Source of the DNA: a virus
Taxonomy: Duplodnaviria; Heunggongvirae; Uroviricota; Caudoviricetes
Virus record (IMG/VR): IMGVR_UViG_3300045988_163275
Span: 1-64,000 of that record
Reading direction: 5' to 3' (one strand)
Length of the DNA: 64,000 nucleotides
A model generated the notes under the pieces. The model was not told the origin of the DNA. It searched no databases and saw only the letters and a list, made by a program, of their open reading frames with translations. Shown here piece after piece: positions 2,465 through 64,000 of the stretch (positions within the stretch are counted from its first letter, which is position 1; each line of letters opens with the position of its first letter). Made by a program: the position numbers and the translations under genes.

Positions 2465-2508
2465 GTTCTTTTTCACTCCTTGAAGTGTGGGCGTCCTTGC
2501 CCACACAA

Positions 2509-2529
2509 ATAGGTATATACTTACTTATT
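2509..2529. repeat. TAAGTA-type AT-rich palindrome (family copy)
   Basis: ataggtatatacttacttatt; between J stop and stf start, followed by a GC hairpin. Confidence 0.5.
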
Positions 2530-2599
2530 ATCCATGATACAAAATCCTTTTGCACTAAGAAAACACGCTATATACATTGCTGCTCATTATTCCTATCAA

Positions 2600-15018: not shown

Positions 15019-15765
15019 TTATTCGGCAGAATTAACCGTTACAGCTTTGGTCGCTTTCTTGCCGCCGCTATTGCTGGTGAAGGAGATATTTGCCGAACCT
15101 TCAGCTACTCCGCGAACCAGACCAGTCTGATCAACGGTAGCCTTCTCCTGATTGTCGGACTCCCACACACCGGTTTTGTCGCCGGCATCTGCAGGTGTGA
15201 TCTGGGCTGCCAGCTGCACGCTCTCACCGGCTTTAACTTCCGGAGAATCCGGAGAGATAGAGACGGATTTAACCGGCTTTGGGCCGCTCATTTTCCCCAG
15301 AATACCGTCGTCATCCGGGTAAGCGGTGAACTGAACCGAGAACACGCGAACATCATCAGACTGGTAGGTCATGGTGAAGTTACCTGCGGTCGCAGCTTTC
15401 GGGATGGTCAGAACGTAGTCGGTGGTATCCTGCGGGGTCAGAACCAGCTCTTTAGCTACGTCGATCAGGTTGACGCCCTGTGCGGAAGTGATGGTCACAG
15501 AGTTATCTTCTTCACTCAGGGTAGAACCCGGCATCAGATCGACCATATTCTGCAACACAGACTCGGCCAGCGGCGCAGTGATAGTGATGTTACGGCCCTG
15601 TACCAGCTCGGAGATGGTGGTTTGCCCTAGCTGGTCTACGGTAACTTTCAGAGTTTCGGTCGCAACCTCAACCTGAACACCGCCTTTGGTGTAACCCAGA
15701 TCAACACCACCAAACGACACTTTGCAGGCGCCAAGTTTGATGTTTTTTACATGGGTATTGGACAT
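15019..15765 (-). CDS. major tail protein with C-terminal Ig-like domain
   Basis: 248 aa; C-terminal Big_2-like segment (VKSVSISPDSPEVKAGESVQLAAQITPADAGDKTGVWESDNQEKATVDQTGLVRGVAEGSANISF); followed by a terminator hairpin; lambda V position. Confidence 0.8.
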   Translation of the reverse strand: MSNTHVKNIKLGACKVSFGGVDLGYTKGGVQVEVATETLKVTVDQLGQTTISELVQGRNITITAPLAESVLQNMVDLMPGSTLSEEDNSVTITSAQGVNLIDVAKELVLTPQDTTDYVLTIPKAATAGNFTMTYQSDDVRVFSVQFTAYPDDDGILGKMSGPKPVKSVSISPDSPEVKAGESVQLAAQITPADAGDKTGVWESDNQEKATVDQTGLVRGVAEGSANISFTSNSGGKKATKAVTVNSAE

Positions 15766-15811
15766 TGTTGGAAAACTCCTTTTTCCGTTAAATCAGCACC
15801 TTCATGGCGCC

Positions 15812-15838
15812 AATAGTAAGTATATACTTACTTATTTT
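15812..15838. repeat. TAAGTA-type palindrome
   Basis: aatagtaagtatatacttacttatttt; between U-like and major tail protein genes. Confidence 0.5.
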
Positions 15839-15839
15839 G

Positions 15840-16223
15840 TTAATTCAACAAATAGCCCGCAAATTCAATCGGGATGCCCGCTTCAATCAACGAGCCTTCG
15901 TTTTTTGGATAAGTTATCGGCATCGACATTGGTCGTACCAACCGGAAGTAAACGCCATCTGACACGGTTTCCTCGACTGGAAACATGTCCATGATCTTAT
16001 TGGCTTTCGCCACCGCCTTTGTGATCGTCGCATTACGCACGATGACGGTAAAAGAGTCGTGATAAAAGCCTTTTAACTCATGGTCAATGGCGATCCCCGT
16101 ATTGGGAGTAACCAACAGGACGCCGGACTTCACATTGGCTGGCATGTAGTGACAGAAAATGTCAGTGCCGAGTGTGCCGATCTTCGCCTTCTGCATCAGG
16201 CTCGCAAATGCTTCAATAAACAC
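15840..16223 (-). CDS. tail terminator protein (lambda U-like, by position)
   Basis: 127 aa ORF immediately upstream of the major tail protein gene; assignment by synteny only. Confidence 0.45.
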   Translation of the reverse strand: MFIEAFASLMQKAKIGTLGTDIFCHYMPANVKSGVLLVTPNTGIAIDHELKGFYHDSFTVIVRNATITKAVAKANKIMDMFPVEETVSDGVYFRLVRPMSMPITYPKNEGSLIEAGIPIEFAGYLLN

Positions 16224-16224
16224 A

Positions 16225-16746
16225 TCAACCTCTCGTAAAACCTGCTTTCCTTGCTGCTTCAGCTATCGTCTGAGCGAACTGTTTCTCACTGACCTGTGCC
16301 GCTCTTTCAAGGAACAAAGGCCCAACGCGTGGCTTCACACCAGCAACTGGCGGGTTGGTGACGCTCTTCATGCGGGAGAGATAGCCGAGACGATACTTGC
16401 CCAACTCCATGTACTCCGCATAATCGCCAACCTCAACACCAGGGTTCCCTTCGCGCGGTTTAGCCCCAGACACCGATAACTCAATACGCAGCCCCGTATA
16501 GCCCTCTTTGACAACTCTCGCGAAAATCGCGCTTTCGAGTGAGCCAGTCTCCAGCGGAGCCATTGCCCGCGCCAGACGCTCAACCAGACGCGCCAGCTTC
16601 TCCATGTCACGAATGAGATAACGCTTAAAGGCTTTCTGGCTGTTATTGAGTCTGTCGCCAGCACGCTTAAACTGATGCGAGTCATGCTTCAGGCCCATAT
16701 GTTTGCCCCTACTTCCAGATGACCAGGGCGTCCACGTAACCCCCAA
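16225..16746 (-). CDS. head-tail joining / tail completion protein (by position)
   Basis: 173 aa ORF in the head-tail connector block; real start may be the internal Met (MGLKHDSHQF). No motif recognised. Confidence 0.4.
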   Translation of the reverse strand: MGVTWTPWSSGSRGKHMGLKHDSHQFKRAGDRLNNSQKAFKRYLIRDMEKLARLVERLARAMAPLETGSLESAIFARVVKEGYTGLRIELSVSGAKPREGNPGVEVGDYAEYMELGKYRLGYLSRMKSVTNPPVAGVKPRVGPLFLERAAQVSEKQFAQTIAEAARKAGFTRG

Positions 16747-17033
16747 CGACGATGCACACTGGATACCTTCAGCTTTAGCCCCTCCAGAATAAGAACGTCA
16801 TCAAGTTGCACTGCGGCCTCAAGTGGGACCACCAGAACGACATCGAACAATTCCATATTGGCTTTTCCGCGACTGCCGGAGCTGTCCGCACGTACCGATG
16901 ACTTCTCATTACTTTGTTCAAACTTAACGACACCGACGTTCGTCTTCCTGACGAACTGCAATTGCGCTTCACCGTAGACATTCTTCGAACCCAGACGGTA
17001 AATCGCCATCTCTGCTTGCCATGAAATGTTCAT
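16689..17033 (-). CDS. head-tail connector protein (by position)
   Basis: Track ORF 16689..17147; start moved to internal Met (MNISWQAEMAIYRL) to avoid overlap with the upstream gene. Synteny only. Confidence 0.35.
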   Translation of the reverse strand: MNISWQAEMAIYRLGSKNVYGEAQLQFVRKTNVGVVKFEQSNEKSSVRADSSGSRGKANMELFDVVLVVPLEAAVQLDDVLILEGLKLKVSSVHRRWGLRGRPGHLEVGANIWA

Positions 17034-25645: not shown

Positions 25646-25896
25646 CTGCGCTCGATATTGGTATTGATGAAGTCCAGACGAAGCGATTCCATCGCCCCCA
25701 CCATGACGTATGGGCGCCCACCGTTATGCCAGCAATCCATAACATTGCCGTCGTTGTCGATCATCAGCAGAGCCAGGCTCTGACTTTTGCCTTCTCTTGC
25801 GTACTGGAGTGCTTCTTCCAGCAGGCGGATGACTTCAACGTTGTTGTTGTCAGTCTCTTTCGATGGCTTCAGCTCTACGATCTTCAAATCAGGCAT
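25642..25896 (-). CDS. hypothetical protein
   Basis: 84 aa ORF overlapping its neighbours by a few nt (operon context). Confidence 0.35.
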   Translation of the reverse strand: MPDLKIVELKPSKETDNNNVEVIRLLEEALQYAREGKSQSLALLMIDNDGNVMDCWHNGGRPYVMVGAMESLRLDFINTNIERR

Positions 25897-26527
25897 ATTC
25901 CACCTTCACGCGTTCTTTGTAGTGCTTGGTGATCTGCATATCCGGGCGCAGCGCGTTCTTCAGGTCTTCGTGGGTCGTCGCCACCATTACCGTCGCACCA
26001 ACCTTACGGGCGGCACGCTGGAGGTTCGACGCCACAACCTGGGCGGTTACACGGTCGAGAACAGCGCCAAATTCGTCGGCAGCCCAGACTTTCGCGCCGG
26101 ACTCGATCAGCTTGGCGATCTTGAGACGGTATTTCTGGCCGTCAGACATCTCGGATGGCTTACGCACAAAGAGATAGGCGTCATTCAATCCGGCCATAGA
26201 CAGCAGCCCCAGCGCTTCGCTGGTGGTTTTGCCCAGCTGGTCAATGACGTTAACCTCATTGTCGAAGGCAAAGTCATCGATGGAGGCTACAGAAAGCCCT
26301 TCATCCTTCATCTGGCGTTGCAGCTCGCGCAGCACAACGGATTTACCGGAACCGGATTGGCCGGTGATGTACACCACATCGCCCTGCTTCACTTCCAGCT
26401 CCAGATTGTCGTAAAGCGTCCACTCTTTTTCGTCCAGGCCAAGACCGAACGATTCGGCAATCTCCAGCGTGCGCGTGGTTTTGTTCACGCGGGTCTGAAA
26501 CGATACGTTGATGGTGTATTTGCTCAT
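25889..26527 (-). CDS. ABC-type ATPase (stand-alone nucleotide-binding domain)
   Basis: Walker A (GQSGSGKS), ABC signature-like (MSDGQKYRL), Walker B (VWAADEFGAVLD), H-loop (ATTHE). Confidence 0.65.
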   Translation of the reverse strand: MSKYTINVSFQTRVNKTTRTLEIAESFGLGLDEKEWTLYDNLELEVKQGDVVYITGQSGSGKSVVLRELQRQMKDEGLSVASIDDFAFDNEVNVIDQLGKTTSEALGLLSMAGLNDAYLFVRKPSEMSDGQKYRLKIAKLIESGAKVWAADEFGAVLDRVTAQVVASNLQRAARKVGATVMVATTHEDLKNALRPDMQITKHYKERVKVEYA

Positions 26528-27192
26528 GCGGCCAGCTCCCCAGAAGAAACTTTCTCCGCATACGCCACGAAAGCGTCTACCCCGCTCTCTCCCGTGATTT
26601 CTTCCATGTGGGCAAGCAAATCCCCAACCACAATGGCAGAGCCAGCAGGGAGCGTTTTAAAGCCCAATACGTCGATGACGCGGACTTCTTCAGAGGCCAC
26701 TTCGCGACTGATCTCGGTGTGCTCTTCCTTCTGGCGCTCCGTCTCTTCGCCCAGATCGAGCACCAGAGAGCCGGTTTCCATCTCTTCGGTCATGCTGCCG
26801 ACAAGCACGTTCAGCTCGCGCTCTTCAAAACCGAAGACCTCGACGTCGCCCAGCACCAGGGATTCCAGTTCCTGCTGCAATTTGATGGCGTCGTAGTCAA
26901 TACTGGCCAGGCGGTTGTCTTCCAGACGCTTAGCCTTCACTTCTTCTTCGCTCAGATCGTCGCGAACAATGACCGGCACACGCTCCAGACCAGCCAGAAG
27001 AGCCGCCTCGCGACGACCGTGGCCAGTAATGATGACGTCGTGCTTGTCGACAGTGATCGGCTGGTCAAAACCGCGCTTTTTGATGGCGGCCGCCAGATCG
27101 CGGATCTGCTGTTCGTCATGTTTTTTGGCGTTCATCTCATACGGGATGAGTTCTGCCGGGTTTCGATAGACGATTTCAAAGTTTTTGGTCAT
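26524..27192 (-). CDS. ParB-like nuclease domain protein
   Basis: ParB N-terminal domain motif (VIITGHGRREAALLAGLERVPVIV); acidic C-terminal half; start taken at MTKNFEIV, overlapping the upstream stop. Confidence 0.6.
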   Translation of the reverse strand: MTKNFEIVYRNPAELIPYEMNAKKHDEQQIRDLAAAIKKRGFDQPITVDKHDVIITGHGRREAALLAGLERVPVIVRDDLSEEEVKAKRLEDNRLASIDYDAIKLQQELESLVLGDVEVFGFEERELNVLVGSMTEEMETGSLVLDLGEETERQKEEHTEISREVASEEVRVIDVLGFKTLPAGSAIVVGDLLAHMEEITGESGVDAFVAYAEKVSSGELAA

Positions 27193-27890
27193 TACATACG
27201 CTCCTTGTAGTAGTCGACCAGCCACACCAGGGCTTCCCCGGCGTTCTCCATTTCGTTACCGGTATTGATTCCCTGCTCTTTGATGATGGTTTTGATGGTG
27301 TCGGCGACGCGATCTGACGCATCAAACGTCACCTTGAAGCGCATCGTCTGGTGTTCAGCGCCGACTCGCTCGGTTTTCTCGCGTTTGTCCTCATCGACCG
27401 GCTCGTCATCGCCACGGGAGAGCGCTTCCAGCGCTTCAAGATCGATAACGGACGCTTTGGCGAGTGTTGCCGCCATTTCGTCGTCATACGGGGCGATATC
27501 GGACAACCGGTAGTCGATTTCAGACTGGATTTCTTCGATTAAGCGCTGCAAAGCGACCTGATCGTCTTCGCCGTAGCGCTCGTTGTCGACGAGGGAAATC
27601 TGTTTGGCCACCAGATCGTTAATTTTGCCCACGGAGATGACGGGAACCGTTGAAATGCCCTGCTCCATCGCGGCACGCCAGCGGTGTTCACCACCGAGGA
27701 TCTCAAAAATGCCCCCGTCCAACTCCCGCGCCAGAATTGGCTTAAAAAAGCCCAATTTTTCGATAGAGCCTTTCAGTTTTTCGAAGTTTTGCGCCCCAAC
27801 GGAGTTGGTATTCCAGGGATTCGGACGCAGGTTCGCGACTTCCACCTGCAGAATCGTAATTTTCACACCCATAGTTCTGATACAATCCAT
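27192..27890 (-). CDS. ParB-like nuclease domain protein
   Basis: ParB N-terminal motif (FEILGGEHRWRAAMEQGISTVPVI); first gene of the operon, divergent from the helicase gene. Confidence 0.6.
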   Translation of the reverse strand: MDCIRTMGVKITILQVEVANLRPNPWNTNSVGAQNFEKLKGSIEKLGFFKPILARELDGGIFEILGGEHRWRAAMEQGISTVPVISVGKINDLVAKQISLVDNERYGEDDQVALQRLIEEIQSEIDYRLSDIAPYDDEMAATLAKASVIDLEALEALSRGDDEPVDEDKREKTERVGAEHQTMRFKVTFDASDRVADTIKTIIKEQGINTGNEMENAGEALVWLVDYYKERM

Positions 27891-34475: not shown

Positions 34476-34871
34476 TTAAGCGAATACGCTTTCAGGGACA
34501 ATGGTGTCGATCTTTTCGCCGGAGATTATTCGCAGACCGTGTTGTCCCATCCAGGTACTATTGGTATTTAAACTCGATGTATAAACCGCATCGACCTTTT
34601 TCATCAAATTTTCAAACAACGTCTGATCCGCGCCACGGAAATGAGTTTCCAGTTTTATCAGTAAAGGGTCAGAAGCATTACTGATGCTTTGGTAACGCAC
34701 CGAATATTTCCCCTTTGTCGCCTCGCCGGTGCGAGTTAAGGTACTGGTGTGAACTTCTTCGCCGGAGGCATTATCGCGTAGCACAATTGTAATTTTTGCA
34801 ACTTTGTCTCCATTTTCCGTCTCTGATGCATAATACATATCCAGGGTCAGATTTTCGCGTTTAACGGTCAT
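34476..34871 (-). CDS. hypothetical early protein
   Basis: 131 aa; TAAGTA-type palindrome upstream. Confidence 0.4.
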   Translation of the reverse strand: MTVKRENLTLDMYYASETENGDKVAKITIVLRDNASGEEVHTSTLTRTGEATKGKYSVRYQSISNASDPLLIKLETHFRGADQTLFENLMKKVDAVYTSSLNTNSTWMGQHGLRIISGEKIDTIVPESVFA

Positions 34872-34908
34872 TTCACTCTCCTTAGTGTTTAATTTTTAAT
34901 TTTATTAT

Positions 34909-44141: not shown

Positions 44142-44205
44142 TTTTAAACAAGTTGTTTTCTTAATTGTTTAATTGTCTCAAATTCTATGATGATGTGAAG
44201 AGTTG
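44142..44205 (-). promoter_or_regulatory. promoter plus palindrome module
   Basis: Minus strand: ...ACAATTAAACAATTAAGAAAACAACTTGTTTAAAAG, upstream of 43553..44125. Confidence 0.5.
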
Positions 44206-44333
44206 CATTAAGGCGAAAAGACACGCAAAAGGAAAAATCAGGCATACCAGACATTTATTTAAAGTGGCATTCATAGCAGAATGTTCTCATTGCCGAAGTT
44301 CTATTCAGACGTCAGTCCCTAAGAGAGAGCAAA

Positions 44334-45293
44334 ATGTTTGGTAATCTTTTCAAAACGGAAGAAACTAAGGCCCGGGAGGGCTTGGAGTCTCATTATCAGA
44401 AAGTCATGAGCTTCGTTGCTGAAAATGATCTACATGAAGCATGGGAAAAAACACGCAATATCATTTTTCGAAATATGGAAGTTAGAAGCTACATCACGCA
44501 AAACGGCGCGTTCGATCGTAACGATTTTTACTATAAGTCAGCCAAAGAGAAGCTTATTCAAAGCGCCTTCACTTCATACCTACTCATAAAAGTTTTACCT
44601 CAGTTCTATGAAATGCATCTCACCACTTTGAAAAGAAAAGAAAAAACACTCACAACACAGGATGAATACGGGGTCTGGAACTTTGACAAGTGGTTTGATG
44701 AAGTAGACTACTTTTATGACAAGGTAGTAAAAGAGAAAGTTTACGATTGGATCGAAGAGAACACAGGCCGGCTCAACAACCTTTGGTTGGCAGAGTCGGA
44801 GGACAAGAATGCCTGGGGGCGGCCAGTTTACTTTAAATTCCAGTTGCCTGAACAATTTGATCGCTGCGCAATAAATCACATTATGACGGTGGTAGACAAT
44901 ACACCAGAACCTGAATTACCTGAGTACACTTCGCTACTGACCGGGCACGAATATGAGCATTTTGTCGCTGGGGAGTTTATGAAGTATGGATCCGACACCC
45001 AAGTAACTAAGGGCAGCGGCGATCACGGTCTGGATATCCTTGTAACCTATAGAGAAGTTCGAATGGCTGTTCAGTGCAAACACTACCAGTCTAAAGTAGG
45101 CAACAAAGCTATTCAGGAAGCATTTTCCGCGAAACAGTTCTACGATTGCTCCCTCGCAATAGTAGTCAGCAACAGCGAGTTTACCCCTCACGCCAGACAA
45201 GCAGCCAAAAAACTGGACGTTTATCTGTATCACCATGAAGATATACACTTAATAATAGACGCCATTAATAATTGGCTGGATGCGCCGGAGTGA
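44334..45293 (+). CDS. Mrr-type restriction endonuclease domain protein with novel N-terminal domain
   Basis: C-terminal PD-(D/E)xK Mrr-catalytic pattern (GHEYEHFVAGEFMKYG...GSGDHGLDILVT...VQCKHYQSKVGNKAIQEAFSA...VVSNSEFTPHARQAAKK); aromatic-rich N-terminal region of about 200 aa. Confidence 0.65.
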   Translation: MFGNLFKTEETKAREGLESHYQKVMSFVAENDLHEAWEKTRNIIFRNMEVRSYITQNGAFDRNDFYYKSAKEKLIQSAFTSYLLIKVLPQFYEMHLTTLKRKEKTLTTQDEYGVWNFDKWFDEVDYFYDKVVKEKVYDWIEENTGRLNNLWLAESEDKNAWGRPVYFKFQLPEQFDRCAINHIMTVVDNTPEPELPEYTSLLTGHEYEHFVAGEFMKYGSDTQVTKGSGDHGLDILVTYREVRMAVQCKHYQSKVGNKAIQEAFSAKQFYDCSLAIVVSNSEFTPHARQAAKKLDVYLYHHEDIHLIIDAINNWLDAPE

Positions 45294-45328
45294 AGATTGA
45301 GGGGCTAATGCCCCCCCCTATTCGTCGG

Positions 45329-45517
45329 TTAAAAGAACCCGAGGATGCCGCCCACTGGAACAATGAAAACTCCCACGACACGCGCAAGTGTCACTCCGGC
45401 ATGAGACTGGAGATCGCCATCGTTCACAAGTTTCACCAGATTCATGATCCAGCCGCTAAACAAAAAAACGGTAAAGCCAACAATCATCAAGGTGAATTTC
45501 TGGAAGTTCCATTTCAT
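45329..45517 (-). CDS. small two-helix membrane protein
   Basis: 62 aa with two hydrophobic helices (FTLMIVGFTVFLFSGWIMNLV; VVGVFIVPVGGILGFF); ATGA-coupled to the upstream ORF. Confidence 0.4.
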   Translation of the reverse strand: MKWNFQKFTLMIVGFTVFLFSGWIMNLVKLVNDGDLQSHAGVTLARVVGVFIVPVGGILGFF

Positions 45518-47800: not shown

Positions 47801-48394
47801 TTACGCTGCCTTTTTACGTGGTCTCTTCTTCCTGACAACATTGGCAGGGTCATAACCACCCAGCTTTTTCATCACCGCCAGCGGTATCTTGCTGATGGTG
47901 TGCCCAGCTTCCTGACAGTAGCCACGGAAGATAAGCAACATGCTGCCACCAGGGTTGATGTTCACCTCCACCAGCCCAAGTTCAACATCCGGCTCAACGA
48001 ACGCCACGCGGCCGCCAGACAAGATGACGGTTTCGTTGGCGCATTCAGCCGCACGCTCGTACCACTGCGTATCGAGGGATTGTGGTATCAGCATGACCGT
48101 CGTCACTCCACGCGCCTGCTCGCGAATGGCTGCGTCTATCCAGGGGGTGATTTTGGAGTAGGGCGGGTTAAGGAACGCCACAGTGCCAGGTTCTCCCCAA
48201 CTGCACTTGAGCGCATCACGCTCAACACCGATAAAGTTCGGCAGGAGAGCATTATCTTTGTTGCAGGCGACGTCCACATCGAACTTTACGCCTATGTAAC
48301 GTTGGATGGCGACAAACAACCACTGCGGTGTGCGCCAAAGGTCGCGAAGAGAGGCATCACGCTCTCGCTTTTTGATTTTTTCGGCTGCGATCAT
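47801..48394 (-). CDS. dam: DNA N6-adenine methyltransferase (phage Dam-type)
   Basis: NPPY motif in context FLNPPYSKITPWIDAAI; about 197 aa as in small phage Dam enzymes. Confidence 0.75.
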   Translation of the reverse strand: MIAAEKIKKRERDASLRDLWRTPQWLFVAIQRYIGVKFDVDVACNKDNALLPNFIGVERDALKCSWGEPGTVAFLNPPYSKITPWIDAAIREQARGVTTVMLIPQSLDTQWYERAAECANETVILSGGRVAFVEPDVELGLVEVNINPGGSMLLIFRGYCQEAGHTISKIPLAVMKKLGGYDPANVVRKKRPRKKAA

Positions 48395-50596: not shown

Positions 50597-51241
50597 TCAG
50601 TGGAAGGTCACTCGTCCTGTTATACGGCTCTCGATGTTTTCAGTGGCTCTTTCCAGCACACGCAATACCGATCTGGCTCGCGCCTCAACCGTGCGGCACT
50701 TTTCAGAGATAATGAAAACCTGCAAATCGCCGGTATGGGGAAGGGCGCTAATTTTCGTCAGCTCGCCACACATAAGTGCATCGATGCGAGCAACATAGAG
50801 ACGGTCAAGCGATCCTCGCTGGGGACGCGCGAGATCTTTGCTGGAAAGCTCAACGCCCGGGCGAAGACCCGCTATAGCATTAAAGTTGGAAATGGCCGCT
50901 TTGTGGCAAAACTGCTCAATGTCGAGAGCCAGCTCGATGCAGCGGTCTTCGTTGGTCTGGCCGACCAGGTCAAGCGTATAAGCCATGACATCGGCTGGCG
51001 TGCGGTCGATGACAAAACCTTCAACGCCGCGGGTGATCATCTCGATGTGTCTGGCAATCTCCATCTGAACCTGAAGACGCTCGTAAAGGGGCAAACGCTC
51101 GCCAACCTTCACCCCCAGACTGCTCATCAGCTTGCCAACACCGGCATCCACATACGGAATGCCATAGTGCGCATCGATGTACCTTGCCAGGGTTGTTTTC
51201 CCACTGCCCTGTGCGCCAGTGATTCCAATCCGGTAATCCAT
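50597..51241 (-). CDS. P-loop NTPase, putative (deoxy)nucleotide kinase
   Basis: Walker A (GITGAQGSGKTT) near the N-terminus; stop overlaps DHFR gene context. Confidence 0.45.
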   Translation of the reverse strand: MDYRIGITGAQGSGKTTLARYIDAHYGIPYVDAGVGKLMSSLGVKVGERLPLYERLQVQMEIARHIEMITRGVEGFVIDRTPADVMAYTLDLVGQTNEDRCIELALDIEQFCHKAAISNFNAIAGLRPGVELSSKDLARPQRGSLDRLYVARIDALMCGELTKISALPHTGDLQVFIISEKCRTVEARARSVLRVLERATENIESRITGRVTFH

Positions 51242-51717
51242 TACGACCTTCTGTATACGATCTGCAAAAAGCCAGGCTCATCCTCATTTGCACGTTGGGT
51301 ATAAGCCGTTTCGACTGGTACGAACCCTAAAGAACGCATCATTGGCGCCGGGAAGAACGCATCCGCGCCCGACACATCCACGCCAATATGCGACAGCCAG
51401 ATCTCTTCAACGTGTGGCATAAAGAGCGAGTAAATCTGCCCGCCACCAATCACCCAGACCGGATCTGGTAGTTTTAAAACGTCATCGATGCCAGCGGGGT
51501 AGAAACCATTGGGGATATAGCCACGAGAGCGCGTCAAAACGAGGTTATGGCGCTCTGGCAGCGGGCGTTTGAGACTTTCCATCGTCTTACGTCCCATCAC
51601 GACAGTGGCGTTTTTGGTGAGTTGTTTGAACAGTTTCAGATCGGTCGGGCAACGCCAGGGAAGTTCGTTGCCAATGCCGATTTCATAGTTGCGGCCGACA
51701 GCTGCAATCATCTTCAT
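51241..51717 (-). CDS. folA: dihydrofolate reductase
   Basis: FolA-like pattern (MIAAVGRNYEIGIGNELPWRCPTDLKLFKQLT...VVMGRKT...VWVIGGGQIY). Confidence 0.8.
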   Translation of the reverse strand: MKMIAAVGRNYEIGIGNELPWRCPTDLKLFKQLTKNATVVMGRKTMESLKRPLPERHNLVLTRSRGYIPNGFYPAGIDDVLKLPDPVWVIGGGQIYSLFMPHVEEIWLSHIGVDVSGADAFFPAPMMRSLGFVPVETAYTQRANEDEPGFLQIVYRRS

Positions 51718-58755: not shown

Positions 58756-59841
58756 TCACACAGCCTCCGCACTCTCTGCTTCGGTCAAGATCTCCTGACA
58801 CAGTATGTCCAGCTTGCTCAGGTCGAAGCCACCGTCAGTGTCGTGAACGATCTTGCAGTACGCCGCAACGGACTCTCCCAGGCTGTCAATTTTGCTGGTT
58901 TCCGCAGTACTGGCAGCGCCTTCCATCATCGATGCCTTGCGAATGAAGTTGCAGACGACACCCTTCGCGCCCATTGTTTTCAGGACATTCTGAAGTTTGA
59001 TGCCTTCTTCATCGCTCTCAACAACGGCACGGAAGCGCACGTAGTTGCCGCGAATCTGATCGTCATCTACATCGTCCTCAAGGTTCACGAATTTAGGTGC
59101 CGAGGTTTCGTGGTGAGTGAATGAGCCGTCCGGTTTGACGATCATGAAGCCGGCCAGTGAACCAACATCCCCCCAATTCTGGTGTGTCAGCGCCCCGATA
59201 CTTACCACTCCAGGCAGCACTTCTTTGTGGTTGTGGTAGTGCCCGGACAACAATAAACGGAAGCCGATATCTTTCAGTTCCTGTGCGTCGATGCCGACAT
59301 CGGGCATGGTGGGGATCGCTTTGTTGATTGAGGTATGTACAACAACATCATGGTTGTCACCATCCAGCCCGGAACGCAGCGTTTTGAGATCGCTGATAAG
59401 TTCTGCGTGGTTATTACGCCAGCTAATCAGATGGACGGTTACGTCGCCCATTTTGATGGAATGAGGACGTTTGCCGCAGACGATTTCCACACCGATTGAG
59501 CGCAGAGAGGCTGCTGCATTGGCGCTGTATACGGAATCGTTGGTTTCGAGGTCGTGGTTGCCAGCCAGCATTACCACCTTGAGACCCAACTCTTTGATGA
59601 TCCACTCGTAAGTTTCGGTCACGAAATGCAGAACGGAAGGTGATATAGCACCGCGAACATGGAAGGTATCACCAGCTACCAGCATGTGCTTACAGCCAGC
59701 AGCTTTCATCGCTTTGGCCGCCTCCTTCGTAGCGTCCAATTGGATCTCCAGCCGAGAGTTAAGCCCGTCAGCGTTTGTTGTCGCAAAAGCATCCCAACGA
59801 TGATAATGGGGATCTGATATTACCCCGTATGGCAATGTCAT
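58756..59841 (-). CDS. sbcD: SbcD/Mre11-like nuclease
   Basis: Calcineurin-like phosphoesterase motifs (VISDPHYH; AGDTFH; LAGNHD; GHYH). Confidence 0.8.
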   Translation of the reverse strand: MTLPYGVISDPHYHRWDAFATTNADGLNSRLEIQLDATKEAAKAMKAAGCKHMLVAGDTFHVRGAISPSVLHFVTETYEWIIKELGLKVVMLAGNHDLETNDSVYSANAAASLRSIGVEIVCGKRPHSIKMGDVTVHLISWRNNHAELISDLKTLRSGLDGDNHDVVVHTSINKAIPTMPDVGIDAQELKDIGFRLLLSGHYHNHKEVLPGVVSIGALTHQNWGDVGSLAGFMIVKPDGSFTHHETSAPKFVNLEDDVDDDQIRGNYVRFRAVVESDEEGIKLQNVLKTMGAKGVVCNFIRKASMMEGAASTAETSKIDSLGESVAAYCKIVHDTDGGFDLSKLDILCQEILTEAESAEAV

Positions 59842-59956
59842 GTGTCTTTTCCTTTGTGGTTATTTTGATACAAATTCTAAGCGTGCATAAGAGGCGTACA
59901 ACCCAGACAACACGGCACACGAAAGAATATAAAGGCACATGATAATGACAAAAAAA

Positions 59957-59977
59957 ATAAGTAAGTAAATACCTATC
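59957..59977. repeat. TAAGTA-type palindrome
   Basis: ataagtaagtaaatacctatc; upstream of sbcD. Confidence 0.45.
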
Positions 59978-60238
59978 AGATAGGGCAGCAACGATTTCTA
60001 AACGTCACAAGCAATTTTATGAGAGCAGTCATTTACTGATGACAAGAAATGAAAAAGGAGAACGGACGGTGAAGTTGTGAGATGACATTTACGGCGTTTG
60101 CGTGCGTCGTCTTCAAACGCATCCGTCGGCCACAGTTTCTGCTCTTGAATAAAATTCACTCATGCATTAATCCCTAAAGCTCTCAGTGTCTTTCTAAGAC
60201 ACCATATTTTATGCCCGGTAAAAAGCATGAGTTTGCCT

Positions 60239-60883
60239 TTAAAACGTCTCTGAGGGCTTCTGACGCGCTCTGCTGATGTCTATTACCCCAGCTTTTGGAC
60301 GAGGGTCTACAAGATTCAACTCTTCAGCACTGTGATACTCCGTGTCGAACTCCCGATCGACATGGCGAATGTAAATGGCTGTCAGAAGGCTGTTATCATT
60401 CAGAAAGTGTCCGTAAGATTTGCGAATTACTTCGCCAACCTTCTCAATCTTCTCTCCGCCCATGCAGAGATGGTTAAATCGGCTGTGTTTCCGCAGCATT
60501 TCATCCACCGGGCCTGAGTAGACCTTATCAACTCTCCCGAACCGGATGACATTTCCGGTATCAGCTTCAACCAGACAAACGAGTTTGCCAGGTTCGACAC
60601 GATCTCGCCAAGTGACACCAGAGCGCAGTGTGTTGAAGTAGGGAGCATCCAATCCGATGATCGGTTTACGAAATGCTAGTAGTGGCACGTAACGTATGCA
60701 GCTGTTTAGGTGGAAATGCGCACCGGCGTCGTGGAGTTTAAGCCGGGTTTCGTTAATCGGGCATTTCGAAGCAATGCCGCAAAGGTCGCAGAGCAACTTC
60801 TGTTTGTTCAGACTAGTGTTTGATTCAATGGTGTAGGAGCCATCTTCAAGACGGCGAACCCAGCGCGTGCGTTTAAGATCCAT
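60239..60883 (-). CDS. hypothetical protein
   Basis: 214 aa ORF between the sbcD upstream region and the repA origin; no motif recognised. Confidence 0.4.
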   Translation of the reverse strand: MDLKRTRWVRRLEDGSYTIESNTSLNKQKLLCDLCGIASKCPINETRLKLHDAGAHFHLNSCIRYVPLLAFRKPIIGLDAPYFNTLRSGVTWRDRVEPGKLVCLVEADTGNVIRFGRVDKVYSGPVDEMLRKHSRFNHLCMGGEKIEKVGEVIRKSYGHFLNDNSLLTAIYIRHVDREFDTEYHSAEELNLVDPRPKAGVIDISRARQKPSETF

Positions 60884-61069
60884 AATTCTTGTTCAAATAA
60901 TTTTGTCCGGGGCAACGATAACGGATAAGGCGCACCGGAGTTTGCAAATGCCTGTTTACTTATTCACTTTATTCACAGGCCCGATCCAATATTTAGATCC
61001 CCAGAGAGATCCTACAGAAGATCAAAAGAGATCCCCGATCGTCTCCAGCGCTTGCGGTTACTGGCTTGA

Positions 61070-61590
61070 GAAGGGGTTACTATCCACTATAGGGAGCAAA
61101 ATAACCACTGTAGAGAGCATAATAACCGCTATGAAGAGCAAAACAACCTCTCTGGAGAGTAGTCGGTATCCACTGTAGTGAGTAGGAGACAATGTTTTAA
61201 CTGGATAACTCCGAGCCTGTTTTTCTGCGGCAGATGGCTGATATTCTTGGAAATATTGTAAATTTTGCGTTGCGGCGTGTTTATTTCGATCACACATTAT
61301 CCCCAGAAGGGGAGTGATGCCTGATTTTGTAATTATCTGATTTTTATACACAGGCCCGATCCAGTAATTCAGATCCCTGTTAGAACCAAAGAGAACCACA
61401 AAGACCCAAAGAGATCCCCGGACCCTGCAAACCGTTGTGCCACATGGCTTTAGAGGTTATCGATATCCACTATAGCGAGAATAACAACCACTATGGAGAG
61501 TAAATCAACCACTATGGAGAGTAGAAAAACCGCTGTAGGCGGTAGGATAACCACTGTGATGGGTGCTACTATCCACTGTAATCAGTAAAG
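61070..61590 (+). repeat. origin iteron arrays upstream of repA
   Basis: About 11 direct repeats of roughly 20 bp (TATCCACTATAGGGAG, TAACCACTGTAGAGAG, CAACCACTATGGAGAG ...) in two clusters (61076-61185; 61460-61585) separated by an AT-rich segment; GATC clusters at 60990-61040 and 61350-61420. Confidence 0.8.
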
Positions 61591-61625
61591 GCACCCAAGC
61601 CGTCGAATAAAAAGAGACATTTGGA

Positions 61626-62681
61626 ATGAGCGTAAACGACAATAAAAACATTGCGATAAGCGAAGCATTTTCCGAAACAGACAAAAAGACCGGCGAAGTT
61701 GTTACGTTAGTTCCTAACACCAACAACACAGTTCAGCCTGTTGCTCTGATGCGTCTTGGTCTCTTCGTTCCGACGCTGAAATCGACATCCAGGGGTAGAA
61801 AGGGGCAAATGGTCTCTATGGACGCCTCCGCTGAACTCAAACAGCTGTCTCTGGCCAAAGCCGAAGGGTACGAGGATATAAGGATTGCTGGTCTTCGTCT
61901 TGATATGGATAACGATTTCAAAACATGGGTGGGCATCATCCACGCGTTCGCCAAGCACAAGGTTGTTGGTGACACCGTCACGTTGCCGTTCGTCGAGTTC
62001 GTCAGACTTTGTGGCATACCAACAGCCAGATCGTCCGCGAAGTTACGTAAGCGCCTGGACAGCTCTCTAAGTCGTATCGCCACAAACACCATCTCATTCC
62101 GCAGCAAAGGCTCTGAAGAGTATTACGTTACGCACCTTGTGCAGACGGCAAAGTACAGTACCAAGAATGACACGGTCGAACTGAAGGCCGATCCTAAGAT
62201 TTTCGAACTTTACCAGTTCGACAAAAAGGTGCTTTTGCAACTTCGGGCCATCAACGAACTCTCCAGAAAGGAATCCGCGCAGGCGCTCTACACCTTCATT
62301 GAAAGTTTGCCACCAGACCCGGCGCCAATCTCATTGGCTCGCTTACGCGCCAGACTTAACTTAACCAGCCGCACCATTACCCAGAATGCGACAGTCAGGA
62401 AGGCGATGGAGCAACTGCGAGAGATCGGCTATCTCGATTACACTGAAGTGAAACGCGGCAGCTCGGTCTACTTCGTCATCCACTATAGACGGCCGAAGTT
62501 ACGTTCGGCACTGCCGCCATCTATGGCCACGCCTGAAGATCCAGAAGATATCTTGCCAGGTGATGATCCGGAGGACATTATCGATGTTGCTCCTGAAGAA
62601 AAAGACGGGGAAATGGTCATGTTGAGCAAGGAAGAACTGGCGATTCTCGAAGAGCTGCGCAAGGCAAAGGCTCGCAAATAG
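61626..62681 (+). CDS. repA: iteron-binding replication initiator (P1/RepFIB-type RepA)
   Basis: N-terminal [21 protein letters not shown] and central [78 protein letters not shown] resemble RepFIB/P1 RepA; flanked by iteron arrays. Confidence 0.85.
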
Positions 62682-62684
62682 CCC

Positions 62685-63245
62685 AACCACTGTAGAGAGT
62701 AAAAAGGCTCACTATCCACTGTAGTGAGCCTTTTTGTTTATCGGAAATGCAATATCCACTGTAGTGAGTAAAAGAAACCGAAGAATAACCACTGTAGGCA
62801 GTGCGCACAAATCGCGAAGTAAATGTTAGTGGTTGCAAACATAGATAAAACAAGGGCTGAGAGGTTAGCGGTCACTGGGTATCCATGTTAAGTCTACTCT
62901 CTACAGCGGTTATCGTCGCTCTCTTCATTGTTGACTATCCACTGTGAAGAGCAGAATTGGCTGACTTGACCTTTATCCACTGTAGTGAGTGGATATCTGT
63001 TTAAAACAGCGAAGATTTACTCTCCATAGTGGATATCCGCTGGAGGAGGCATTCCATCACTCTCTATAGTGGTTGTTTGTAGTCAGTGAACGCCTGTTTA
63101 CTCACTACAGTGGATAGTTGATATCGTGGCAGAGGGTTTGCTCACTACAGTGGTTGGGGTGCATACCTGAAGGGTGTTCTACTCGCTACAGTGGTTATGA
63201 GCCGGATTCACACACGGTGAGCTGGCTACTCACCGCAGTGGATAG
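62685..63245. repeat. iteron array downstream of repA (incA-like)
   Basis: About 13 copies of the same CCACTGTAG core in both orientations (e.g. CTCACTATCCACTGTAGTGAG; CTCACTACAGTGGATAG). Confidence 0.8.
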
Positions 63246-63250
63246 TGTTA

Positions 63251-63466
63251 TCAGTGGATTTTCTTCAGCAGACCCCAGAGTGTCCCGGCCTTCGTTGCGA
63301 GCTTACCTGTTTCCGGATCGTACATGTGCCATTCACGTCGCTGGTGGACAATATACCCATCTTCACGTTCCAGTCGTTCCAGTACGCCGGACTGCTTGAA
63401 CCCTTTGGCACGCCAGTAGCCGCTTGTTTTTTCGATTTCCAGACCTGTCAGTGTAACCGCCATCAA
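63251..63466 (-). CDS. hypothetical small protein
   Basis: 71 aa; last gene of a three-gene operon ending at the downstream iteron array. Confidence 0.35.
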   Translation of the reverse strand: MMAVTLTGLEIEKTSGYWRAKGFKQSGVLERLEREDGYIVHQRREWHMYDPETGKLATKAGTLWGLLKKIH

Positions 63467-63798
63467 CTAATCTCCTTGCAGTCATCGAAAAGGTAGCTGT
63501 CGTTCTTCGCGTGAACGCCGTATACATCACCCGATTTGTTGTAAACGAACCTATCTTTACCTACGCCAGATAGTTCGCCGTTACGTTTAGTGAGAAACGG
63601 GGAAGACAGGACGCGATCATCGCGTACCACATAAAACTGTTCGCCGCGGTCCACAACCATCGCGCCGTAATTAGCTTTAACGACGTTACGGATCAGGCCG
63701 TTTTTCGCTTCGACCACAAACATTTCGCACTCATAGACATGTGTGTCCGCAAAGACGGGGAGAGTGAGCAGCGCCAGTACCAGGGCTGTTTTCTTCAT
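63463..63798 (-). CDS. secreted small protein
   Basis: Signal peptide MKKTALVLALLTLPVFA; mature part about 94 aa with 2 Cys. Confidence 0.45.
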   Translation of the reverse strand: MKKTALVLALLTLPVFADTHVYECEMFVVEAKNGLIRNVVKANYGAMVVDRGEQFYVVRDDRVLSSPFLTKRNGELSGVGKDRFVYNKSGDVYGVHAKNDSYLFDDCKEIS

Positions 63799-63974
63799 GC
63801 CACGACTCCTTTGAAAACGCCTAATGCTGAGTCGAAGACCAGTACTACGGCCAGCGCATTGATCATCACATCATTAACAGGCGCCAGCGCTTTACGGATT
63901 GCCTCTGTGAAGATGCAGTCGAGCACAAAGGCTATCGAGATAATAAGTAACGTAATATCTAATAAAATTTTCAT
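63795..63974 (-). CDS. small membrane protein (59 aa; below ORF-track cutoff)
   Basis: Minus-strand translation MKILLDITLLIISIAFVLDCIFTEAIRKALAPVNDVMINALAVVLVFDSALGVFKGVVA; stop overlaps the ATG of the next gene. Confidence 0.35.
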   Translation of the reverse strand: MKILLDITLLIISIAFVLDCIFTEAIRKALAPVNDVMINALAVVLVFDSALGVFKGVVA

Positions 63975-63995
63975 GATAGGTAAATGCTAACTTAT
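63975..63995. repeat. TAAGTA-type palindrome
   Basis: gataggtaaatgctaacttat; immediately upstream of the 59-aa membrane ORF. Confidence 0.45.
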
Positions 63996-64000
63996 ATATT

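Follow-up and report, generated by a model that had tools for sequence, protein, structure and literature searches.

The initiator gene repA lies between two sets of iterons at the locus studied here, positions 60960-63250 of the window (the whole 64-kb stretch of viral DNA that was analysed). Iterons were searched for with the core CCACTGTAG, allowing up to 2 mismatches, and with a 25-column weight matrix; the iterons at 61126 and 61147 were chosen by eye from the 21-bp register and then put into the matrix. This gave 24 iterons in total with scores of 20-33 bits, all 24 being the training set of the matrix. Outside these, four sites in the 64 kb reach at least 10 bits (34880, 48320, 59205 and 62480), and mononucleotide shuffles of the window yield about two sites at the same threshold. 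The isolated site at 34880 (18 bits) overlaps a GGAGAG stretch resembling a ribosome binding site and probably matches by chance. The upstream half of the locus is divided below into a repA-distal module A and a repA-proximal module B.

60960..60977, + strand: two tandem DnaA-box-like 9-mers of module A, TTATTCACT and TTATTCACA, putative DnaA sites
60982..61042: six GATC heptamers of module A (CGATCCA, AGATCCC, AGATCCT, AGATCAA, AGATCCC, CGATCGT), the densest GATC cluster
61077..61190, + strand: array A, five direct iterons of module A, cores at 61084, 61105, 61126, 61147 and 61170, spaced 21, 21, 21 and 23 bp
61191..61342: inter-module spacer, poorly conserved, 60.5% AT (GC 0.395) against 50.5% AT for the window
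61344..61352, + strand: single DnaA-box-like 9-mer of module B, TTATACACA, putative
61357..61418: six heptamers of module B, three with GATC (61358, 61372, 61413) and three with GAACC/GACCC, not Dam-methylatable
61460..61593, + strand: array B, six direct iterons of module B, cores at 61467, 61488, 61509, 61530, 61551 and 61573, spaced 21-22 bp
61564..61572, + strand: candidate extended -10 (TGcTACTAT) between iterons 5 and 6 of module B, putative repA promoter
61626..62681, + strand: repA, 351 aa, predicted iteron-binding initiator of the Rep_3 family
62473..62497, + strand: intragenic iteron-like site in repA (core CCACTATAG at 62480)
62680..62810, + strand: proximal downstream block, four forward iterons, cores at 62687, 62716, 62756 and 62789
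62889..62998: middle downstream block, one reverse iteron (62901) and two forward iterons (62939, 62977)
63012..63250, - strand: distal downstream block, six reverse iterons, cores at 63024, 63064, 63105, 63145, 63186 and 63233
47801..48394, - strand: Dam-family N6-adenine DNA methyltransferase, 197 aa, NPPY motif, GATC specificity putative

An earlier reading made from the sequence alone (hereafter the sequence-only reading) had counted about 11 iterons upstream of repA, in two clusters and about 21 bp apart, and about 13 downstream in both orientations. Both counts proved exact, with 11 iterons upstream (5 + 6, spaced 21-23 bp) and 13 downstream (62687-63241; six forward and seven reverse). 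Tandem Repeats Finder reports a period of 21 for both array A and array B, and the consensus of array A is approximately ATAACCACTGTAGAGAGTAAA. The repeats, which resemble binding sites, are 19-21 bp long.

RepA and its gene

The assignment of RepA to the Rep_3 family is supported by a Pfam Rep3_N match of 44.6 bits (cut-off 22.4) and a Rep3_C match of 20.7 bits, just below its cut-off; RepA also matches phrog_775 (E 1.6e-146). The protein and WP_033545611.1, given as the product of repA in the RefSeq plasmid NZ_CP100974.1, are 100% identical; its counterparts in SSU5 and Cyrano are 92.9% and 90.3% identical to it, respectively. A comparison with the RepA proteins of P1 and RepFIB had been proposed as a check, and its outcome is favorable: identity is 49% over 267 aa to P1 RepA (E 1e-92) and 59% over 283 aa to the RepA of Klebsiella IncFIB(K). 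The RepA of the window carries an acidic C-terminal tail of about 58 aa (approximately aa 294-351) that P1 RepA lacks. Searches of the RepA sequence against PDB chains gave no match at E up to 1, no NCBIfam model matched, and a single-sequence AlphaFold2 model was unusable (mean pLDDT 39.5). The Pfam matches and the homology to P1 RepA point to a WH1-WH2 fold.

The pECOH89 (H89) replicon type was considered and rejected; at 90% identity to pLF82/Cyrano and 93% to SSU5, the window's RepA falls in the pHCM2/SSU5/pLF82 clade. The RepA of pECOH89 is only 48% similar to that of pLF82 (PMC3999498), and PhiR41_1, at 48.5%, may be a representative of the pECOH89 RepA type. The iteron-like site inside repA scores 16.7 bits, outside the training set, and occurs at the same codons in five of five relatives including the Rahnella plasmid, for which coding constraint is a possible cause.

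The downstream array

The second iteron of the proximal block, at 62716, is embedded in the intrinsic terminator hairpin of repA (62700-62736; AAAAAGGCUCACUA/UAGUGAGCCUUUUU followed by a U-tract), which has a centroid energy of -21.4 kcal/mol and a z score of -4.35. An Rfam scan of 59800-64000 returned only a sub-threshold match, on this same terminator. Iterons of the distal block are spaced 40-41 bp apart with a final gap of 47 bp, and by analogy with P1 the block is presumed to be an incA-like copy-control element. Among E. coli plasmids 98.8-99.7% identical, the number of 41-bp units varies, with up to five extra; downstream totals of 13, 15, 17 and 19 iterons are seen at a 12-bit cut-off, and the upstream set is constant at 5 + 6. 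NZ_CP100974.1, NZ_CP010244.1, NZ_CP081792.1 and CP088502.1 are examples of these natural variants. The window has the shortest distal block observed, with 13 downstream iterons versus 15-19 in near-identical plasmids and 15 in SSU5 and pMT1.

Tandem duplication of the origin module

The region upstream of repA is a tandem duplication, at an offset of approximately 375-383 bp, of a whole P1-oriR-like module consisting of DnaA box(es), GATC heptamers and iterons. This upstream layout had been described as that of P1 oriR and incC. It is instead made up of two whole oriR-like modules in tandem, not of incC with an AT-rich GATC spacer.

The DnaA-box-like 9-mers of module A match the consensus, align with the annotated P1 DnaA site and stand in a corresponding position to the GATC block; in P1 oriR that site spans 18 bp, and its first base lies 23 bp ahead of the first GATC. 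TTATTCACA fits the pattern TTWTNCACA, found just six times in the 64 kb. The six GATC sites fall within 58 bp (60983-61040) and form the densest 100-bp stretch of the window; with 278 GATC sites in total (4.3 per kb), the Poisson probability of at least six in 58 bp is 2.9e-7. All six persist in SSU5, pMT1, E. albertii, Cyrano and the Rahnella plasmid, and in alignment with P1 oriR the block falls on the five Dam sites annotated there (sites 1-5). By analogy, the module A heptamers are presumed to be the Dam/SeqA-controlled opening region.

The sequence-only reading had placed the clustered GATC sites in an AT-rich segment between the two arrays. That segment is indeed moderately AT-rich, but the dense cluster lies instead upstream of array A, and between the arrays there are only three clustered sites (those of module B) and one isolated site (61288). 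Folding of the spacer 61191-61342 as single-stranded DNA, in search of a primosome-assembly-type hairpin, gave z scores near 0 on both strands.

In module B, the DnaA-box-like 9-mer, a consensus match, aligns with the annotated P1 DnaA site; it lies at -282 from the repA start, and the P1 DnaA boxes lie at -277 and -268. Tandem Repeats Finder gives the module B heptamers a period of 10. The three middle, non-GATC repeats are common to SSU5, pMT1, E. albertii and Cyrano, and two of the three are present in the Rahnella plasmid. The candidate extended -10 is conserved in six of six relatives, reading TGCTAATAT in pMT1 and TGTTAGTAT in Rahnella, and a conserved TGnTAnTAT is present in module B only, not in module A. 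In P1, the annotated -10 of PrepA likewise lies between the last two iterons. A strict two-hexamer (-35/-10) sigma-70 scan found no repA promoter in module B, with counts within shuffle expectation. Array B, which lies directly upstream of repA, is presumed by analogy to be the operator of the repA promoter.

Conservation among relatives

The Salmonella phage SSU5 carries the same replicon with the same neighbors, at 89.5% DNA identity across the replicon, and Yersinia pestis pMT1 is 89.8% identical over the origin. The replicons of SSU5, pHCM2, pMT1 and pLF82 (Cyrano) share with the window the 5 + 6 upstream iterons, the six module A GATC sites, the downstream orientation pattern and the flanking genes. 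Architecture is essentially alike in SSU5, pMT1, E. albertii, Cyrano and a 230-kb Rahnella plasmid, with 12-15 downstream iterons. The offsets of array A are the same in the first four of these; at a 12-bit cut-off the Rahnella plasmid has four of its five iterons, and 4 + 5 upstream iterons overall. DNA identity between the Rahnella plasmid and the window is 71.5% over matched parts and 47-78% block by block. Invariant columns make up 54-67% of the functional blocks and 26-35% of the linkers and spacer (spacer 30%).

Comparison with P1, IncFIB(K) and Vibrio cholerae ori2

The P1 replicon has the same order of elements: tandem DnaA boxes, GATC heptamers, five direct iterons (21 bp), repA and a downstream array. 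In P1 incA three forward iterons are followed by six reverse ones, and the array of the window is likewise forward in its proximal part and reverse in its distal part. The core of P1 oriR, consisting of the DnaA boxes, GATC sites and a CTGGCTT linker, aligns with the window at 58-66% DNA identity. The RepA homology, this DNA-level match to oriR and the incA-like order support what had been read from the sequence, namely a P1/RepFIB-type replicon in a siphovirus genome.

The two replicons also differ. The origin module is a tandem pair in the window and single in P1, the downstream iterons number 13 versus 9, and the phage backbone is that of a siphovirus versus the P1 myovirus. The iteron sequences are unrelated (ATAACCACTGTAGAGAGTAAA in the window, GATGTGTGCTGGAGGGAAA in P1), and RepA specificity and incompatibility would therefore differ. 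In P1, parAB follows incA, whereas in the window the array is followed by a cra-like ORF of 71 aa, and the only ParB_N genes seen in the window lie at 26524-27890, 34 kb from the replicon. On the grounds of the unrelated iteron consensus and the missing par operon after the array, a P1/IncY replicon specifically was rejected.

With the classical P307/F RepFIB replicon outside the comparison, the initiator nearest to this RepA beyond the SSU5-type group is that of Klebsiella IncFIB(K). Its repA is flanked by iterons on both sides, as in the window, but it has a single origin module, with six GATC sites at -239 to -186, and iterons unlike those of the window. The DnaA and GATC core shows 76-81% DNA identity in most of the approximately 2,500 plasmid records that match the query in part only.

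A more distant parallel is ori2 of Vibrio cholerae chromosome 2, an iteron origin at which Dam methylation of GATC sites is required for initiation, SeqA acts by sequestration, and a separate negative-control region acts by titration and handcuffing (PMC6090056). Its initiator, RctB, is unrelated to the RepA of the window, and its GATC sites are part of the iterons themselves, whereas those of the window and of P1 occupy heptamers of their own next to the iterons. The likeness is one of mechanism only.

Proposed division of labor between the modules

We favor, with moderate confidence, a division of labor between module A and module B. Module A, with two DnaA boxes, six invariant GATC sites and the greater resemblance to P1 oriR, would be the methylation-controlled origin. 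Module B, with one DnaA box, three GATC sites and the conserved extended -10, would act chiefly as promoter and operator of repA and would provide extra control iterons.

In the single-module relatives P1, PhiR41_1, pJN2-26 and IncFIB(K), the origin module sits at the position of module B, with DnaA boxes at about -240 to -280 and GATC sites at about -250 to -170 from the repA start. This placement is counted both for the division of labor and for its rival. Module B is the positional orthologue of the working origin of P1, and B rather than A could fire. It is conceivable, if rather doubtful, that only module B fires and that module A is either an extra negative-control or pairing element, comparable to a second, upstream incA, or a spare origin. 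Module B keeps six well-conserved iterons, its DnaA box and three conserved GATC sites, and it is not simply decaying, because its three non-GATC heptamers are themselves conserved. Nevertheless, two tandem DnaA boxes and all six GATC sites are kept in A, not in B, down to the Rahnella plasmid, a degree of conservation not readily accounted for if A were only a titration site, since iterons alone would suffice for that. Module A is also closer than module B to the origin cores of P1 and IncFIB(K), with identities of 66% and 65%, respectively, versus 58% and 61%.

Beyond the division of labor, we tentatively suggest that the doubled module is a two-part origin design and not a neutral duplication, in which A would fire under Dam/SeqA control, B would be a promoter, operator and pairing site insensitive to methylation, and gain or loss of 41-bp units would tune copy number.

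Evidence for a plasmid state

The 2.4-kb region is 99.2-99.7% identical to dozens of deposited E. coli plasmids, and near-identical plasmids are assigned to IncFIB by MOB-suite. Among 5,426 complete E. coli genomes there are 160 matching places, all on plasmids and none chromosomal. The window is collinear with the 111.7-kb E. coli plasmid NZ_CP100974.1 from 39.5 to 103 kb, with identities of 88.5-99.7% block by block, and that plasmid has genes for tail fibre, tail, tape measure, major capsid and large terminase. Collinearity with a plasmid bearing siphovirus genes, together with the 160 of 160 plasmid matches, agrees with the phage-plasmid lifestyle that had been proposed. SSU5-type phage-plasmids are a described group (PMC7969092), and the relative Cyrano is by experiment a plasmid of about 5.5 copies that is inducible by ciprofloxacin and makes siphovirus virions (PMC9928086). 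Elsewhere in the literature on phage-plasmids, a 2026 heteroresistance preprint concerns an unrelated IncFII-type element, and the IncpKPHS1 paper concerns another replicon of the SSU5 group.

No tRNAs were found in the window. The sequence-only reading had also pointed to a lack of integrase, and this is true within the window; a conserved tyrosine recombinase is nevertheless present elsewhere on the collinear plasmid, Cyrano, PhiR41_1 and pJN2-26. Since these relatives carry the recombinase elsewhere, taking an integrase outside the window as refutation of the extrachromosomal state would mislead.

The locus has the features of a P1/RepFIB-type replicon (a Rep_3 initiator, phased upstream iterons, DnaA boxes, GATC heptamers and a downstream array), and the similarity in sequence and gene order and the siphovirus structural module place the element in the SSU5 supergroup. 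We conclude that 60960-63250 very probably serves an SSU5-supergroup siphovirus phage-plasmid for plasmid maintenance in the prophage state, as a theta replicon under iteron control that belongs to the P1/RepFIB family; autonomous replication, RepA binding, Dam dependence and handcuffing would be expected of it by analogy with P1.

It is highly unlikely that the RepA-iteron region is instead a lytic replication origin of the phage. The region does sit in a phage genome beside DNA-metabolism genes, with an SbcCD-like nuclease in the window and, on other parts of the collinear plasmid, DnaE, a primase and a DnaB-like helicase. P1, however, has a separate lytic origin; the same replicon, with a closely similar iteron layout, drives the 230-kb non-phage Rahnella plasmid; and it is typed as IncFIB in many plasmids. 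A large downstream control array suits a low copy number, not runaway lytic replication, and the copy number of about 5.5 given for Cyrano refers to uninduced cells (PMC9928086). Less probable still is an integrated or defective prophage with the replicon as an inactive remnant: relatives encode a tyrosine recombinase annotated as integrase and the window is without ends that would show its topology, but no chromosomal place was matched in the complete E. coli genomes, repA is intact and identical to the repA of circular 106-113 kb plasmids, in the examined stretches of which it is the sole replication-initiator gene annotated, and constraint on the functional blocks is visible.

Proposed mechanism

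By analogy with P1 and other iteron plasmids, RepA monomers would occupy the phased iterons; acting with the DnaA of the host, they would melt the neighboring heptamers and bring in DnaB. Firing would need full Dam methylation of the heptamers, and once initiation had occurred SeqA would sequester the origin in its hemimethylated form. From the repA-proximal iterons, RepA would repress its own promoter, and the 13 downstream iterons would keep copy number low through titration of RepA and pairing (handcuffing) with the origin. The Dam dependence of the origin and the copy control by the array are both carried over from P1.

The methyltransferase at 47801..48394 had been taken as encoded by the replicon. 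The ORF and its Dam family are confirmed (Pfam Dam PF05869, 127.8 bits; TIGR01712 phage_N6A_met, 111.8 bits, cut-off 97), but the gene is on the minus strand and 13 kb away. It is an associated DNA-metabolism gene of the phage that lies outside the replicon, and the known hosts possess their own Dam.

Significance

The sequence-only reading is correct, yet the replicon it identified was already known and catalogued, as part of a familiar group of E. coli and Salmonella phages that persist as plasmids. SSU5-like phage-plasmids with an IncFIB replicon are typed by standard replicon-typing tools and are tracked as carriers of resistance genes, such as blaCTX-M-15, and the exact RepA of the window is already in RefSeq. 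The tandem doubling of the origin module is the only point for which we found no earlier account in the literature, in a search whose scope did not extend to the pMT1 sequence papers of 1998 (Lindler et al.; Hu et al.), where these repeats may be described; the doubling may be new to the literature. The remaining value lies in the anatomy. If a doubled origin with unequal Dam sites is both undescribed and functional, it would offer a natural system in which to separate origin firing from initiator autoregulation in a P1-type replicon. The natural variants with 13 to 19 downstream iterons among near-identical plasmids are ready material for relating the length of the control array to phage-plasmid copy number and, in turn, to resistance-gene dosage.

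RepA and the iteron arrays

repA (61626..62681, + strand, 351 aa) is the sole long open reading frame within 60950-63245. Its product is 100% identical to WP_033545611.1, the repA product annotated in RefSeq plasmid NZ_CP100974.1, and shares 92.9% identity with SSU5 RepA and 90.3% with Cyrano RepA. The assignment of RepA to the P1/RepFIB type in the sequence-only reading was borne out by comparison with P1 RepA (49% identity over 267 aa, E 1e-92) and IncFIB(K) RepA (59%). Pfam detects Rep3_N, with Rep3_C slightly under the cut-off. Compared with P1 RepA, the window's RepA has an additional acidic C-terminal tail (about 58 residues).

Iterons, with a consensus of about ATAACCACTGTAGAGAGTAAA, were located by core search and a weight matrix. 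The counts given in the sequence-only reading, about 11 upstream and about 13 downstream, were exact.

61084-61170 (cores): array A, five direct iterons
61467-61573 (cores): array B, six direct iterons
62687, 62716, 62756, 62789, 62939 and 62977, + strand: six downstream forward iterons
62901 and 63024-63233, - strand: seven downstream reverse iterons
62700-62736: repA intrinsic terminator hairpin (centroid -21.4 kcal/mol, z -4.35)

Arrays A and B are spaced at 21-23 bp, with a period of 21 for each in Tandem Repeats Finder, and the 13 downstream iterons run in the order ++++-++------. Elsewhere in the 64 kb only four further sites reach at least 10 bits, and shuffles yield about two. An isolated site far from the replicon (34870-34895, - strand, 18.1 bits) shares bases with a GGAGAG stretch that precedes a gene start; it is probably a chance match. 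Another iteron-like site lies within repA itself (62473-62497, core 62480, + strand, 16.7 bits) and is found at identical codons (+851 to +854) in SSU5, pMT1, the E. albertii plasmid, Cyrano and the Rahnella plasmid; this may reflect either a genuine RepA site or coding constraint alone (VIHYRR). The second downstream iteron falls in the loop and 3' arm of the terminator hairpin, so RepA binding and termination could interfere with each other.

A duplicated origin module upstream of repA

The region upstream of repA is a tandem duplication, with the same order of parts in both copies. A repeat finder paired 60968-60994 with 61343-61369, 61018-61037 with 61401-61420, and 61062-61162 with 61445-61545, at offsets of 375-383 bp.

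60960-61190, module A (distal): two DnaA-box-like 9-mers (TTATTCACT and TTATTCACA), six AGATCCn heptamers (GATC in all six), a linker with a CTGGCTT motif, five iterons
61344-61593, module B (repA-proximal): one DnaA-box-like 9-mer (TTATACACA), six AGATCCn heptamers (GATC in three, GAACC/GACCC in the others), a linker with a CTGGCTT motif, six iterons

The 152-bp spacer separating the modules is 60.5% AT, compared to 50.5% in the window, and showed no notable single-strand structure on folding. The window has 278 GATC sites, and six of them fall at 60983-61040, making this its most GATC-rich 100 bp (for six sites within 58 bp, the Poisson P is about 3e-7). The upstream layout first proposed, two iteron clusters separated by an AT-rich segment with clustered GATC sites, was close; missing from it were the position of the strongest GATC cluster, ahead of the first array, and the repetition of the whole module.

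We aligned the upstream regions of six sequences: the window, SSU5, Y. pestis pMT1, an E. albertii plasmid, Cyrano (pLF82) and a Rahnella 230-kb plasmid, in which SSU5-type flanking genes were not seen. The SSU5-type relatives all carry 5+6 upstream iterons at identical offsets; the Rahnella plasmid has 4+5 at a 12-bit cut-off, and downstream iterons number 12-15 in all relatives compared. In every one of the six sequences, module A retains its six GATCs. In module B the same three GATCs are kept in the SSU5-type sequences, two of these also in Rahnella, and the same three heptamers are without GATC in all SSU5-type relatives (two in Rahnella). Invariant columns make up 54-67% of the functional blocks versus 26-35% of the linkers, spacer and leader.

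Comparison with P1 and proposed roles of the two modules

In its GenBank annotation, P1 oriR consists of an 18-bp DnaA site, five Dam sites and five incC iterons, followed by repA, nine incA iterons and parAB; the incC iterons are spaced 21 bp with the repA promoter between them. In the segment made up of DnaA boxes, GATCs and linker, both modules align to P1 oriR and to the origin of Klebsiella IncFIB(K), at 66% and 65% identity respectively for module A and 58% and 61% for module B, whereas the iteron sequences of P1 and IncFIB(K) are unrelated to those of the window. Downstream, P1 incA has three forward then six reverse iterons, against ++++-++------ here, and no par operon follows the window's array at the place where P1 has parAB. 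Three consecutive genes about 34 kb from the replicon (25889-27890, - strand) code for a 212-aa ABC-type ATPase and two ParB_N proteins of 233 and 232 aa; they may serve in partition or form a ParB-like nuclease system. One ParB gene is annotated as frameshifted in NZ_CP100974.1 and is intact in the window.

How P1 and other iteron plasmids work has been established in studies by Abeles, Austin, Chattoraj and Brendler. While the layout and homologies of the replicon are observed directly, its mechanism we infer from those plasmids. RepA monomers on phased iterons, together with DnaA, would open the heptamer region; full GATC methylation would be needed, and the hemimethylated origin would be sequestered by SeqA after firing. 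RepA would repress its own promoter in array B, and titration and handcuffing by the downstream array would lower copy number (general principles reviewed in PMC6090056). A conserved candidate extended -10 (TGcTACTAT) occupies 61564-61572, between the final two iterons of module B, and the -10 of P1 is placed likewise. A strict promoter scan did not detect it in the window.

A single module, at the position of B, is found in P1, IncFIB(K), pJN2-26 and PhiR41_1, an SSU5-like phage with a RepA 48.5% identical to the window's. By position, module B is thus the orthologue of the P1 origin; in the rival reading it is module B that fires, with module A as a control element. Module A is an old extra copy in which the canonical origin features are better kept than in B. 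We favour, at about an even chance, an arrangement in which the methylation-controlled origin is module A, and module B provides the promoter/operator and extra control iterons.

A variable downstream array and a replicon slot with differing cassettes

The distal reverse block (63012-63250) is built of 40-41-bp units, and E. coli plasmids 98.8-99.7% identical carry different numbers of them, up to five extra. With a 12-bit cut-off, 13, 15, 17 or 19 downstream iteron-like sites were counted across the set compared (NZ_CP010244.1, CP088502.1 and NZ_CP081792.1 among them); upstream, 5+6 is constant throughout. The window has the shortest form and the minimum count of 13.

The replicon slot (window 60884-63250; PhiR41_1 1348-3256; pJN2-26 1349-3197) is bounded by a conserved 214-aa gene (phrog_2105; ASCH-domain in the Cyrano annotation) and a cra-like 71-aa gene. 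Across SSU5-supergroup members it holds different RepFIB-family cassettes, with RepA 48-50% identical, differing iterons and a single or double origin, which points to replicon cassette exchange on a shared phage backbone. The GenBank annotation of the circular phage-plasmid pJN2-26 (MZ779062.1) places attR/attL at 1546-1565 and 2816-2835, either side of repB; these look like artefacts of an automated prophage finder on repeats around the replicon rather than genuine att sites.

Evidence for a plasmid state of the element

Many circular E. coli plasmids of 106-113 kb, typed IncFIB by MOB-suite, match the 2.4-kb region at 99.2-99.7% identity, and Salmonella phage SSU5 matches it at 89.5%. The region occurs in 130 of 5,426 complete E. 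coli genomes, with all 160 match places on plasmids and none on the chromosome. The window is collinear with the 39.5-103 kb part of NZ_CP100974.1, where genes for tail fibre, tail, tape measure, major capsid and large terminase lie. Elements of the SSU5 type form a recognised group of phage-plasmids (PMC7969092; PMC3999498) whose IncFIB replicons are included in typing databases (bioRxiv 10.1101/2025.09.12.675607; PMC12838234). Cyrano, with the same replicon architecture, has a measured copy number of 5.5 per cell; ciprofloxacin induces it, and it produces siphovirus particles (PMC9928086). Together these data support the phage-plasmid lifestyle that had been proposed.

The absence of an integrase, also claimed, holds within the window but not for collinear NZ_CP100974.1, which beyond the window's span encodes a tyrosine recombinase of 367 aa (15702-16805), labelled a site-specific integrase in the annotation. 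Homologues of 80-86% identity occur in Cyrano, where the gene adjoins a putative repressor, and in PhiR41_1, pJN2-26 and other SSU5-supergroup elements; SSU5 is absent from the nine records with at least 80% identity. Since its carriers were found only as plasmids, the recombinase may act in multimer resolution, the role of Cre in P1, and its presence would not refute a plasmid lifestyle.

The proposed Dam-like methyltransferase is an open reading frame of the Dam N6-adenine family (47801..48394; PF05869, 127.8 bits; TIGR01712, 111.8 bits), with the correction that it lies on the - strand, 13 kb from the origin, amid DNA-metabolism genes. Known hosts have a Dam of their own; a role of the predicted enzyme at the origin is possible, not needed. 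Elsewhere in the window, a 319-aa reading frame with an Mrr_cat restriction-endonuclease domain (44334..45293, + strand, 76.6 bits) sits in a stretch of about 1.15 kb (44177-45330) missing from NZ_CP100974.1, the closest complete plasmid, probably a small defence-gene insertion. A phage dihydrofolate reductase gene (51241..51717, - strand; DHFR_1, 121 bits) adjoins thymidylate synthase in a nucleotide-metabolism module, and its counterpart in NZ_CP100974.1 is RefSeq-annotated as trimethoprim-resistant DfrA51.

The replicon observation is confirmed and its interpretation, with corrections, supported; the element, its replicon and the phage-plasmid reading were already known. In the available literature, whose scope does not include the 1998 pMT1 papers, we found no description of an origin-module duplication with unequal Dam-site retention or of a variable downstream control array. 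The duplicated origin module and the variable control array are two points of modest interest.
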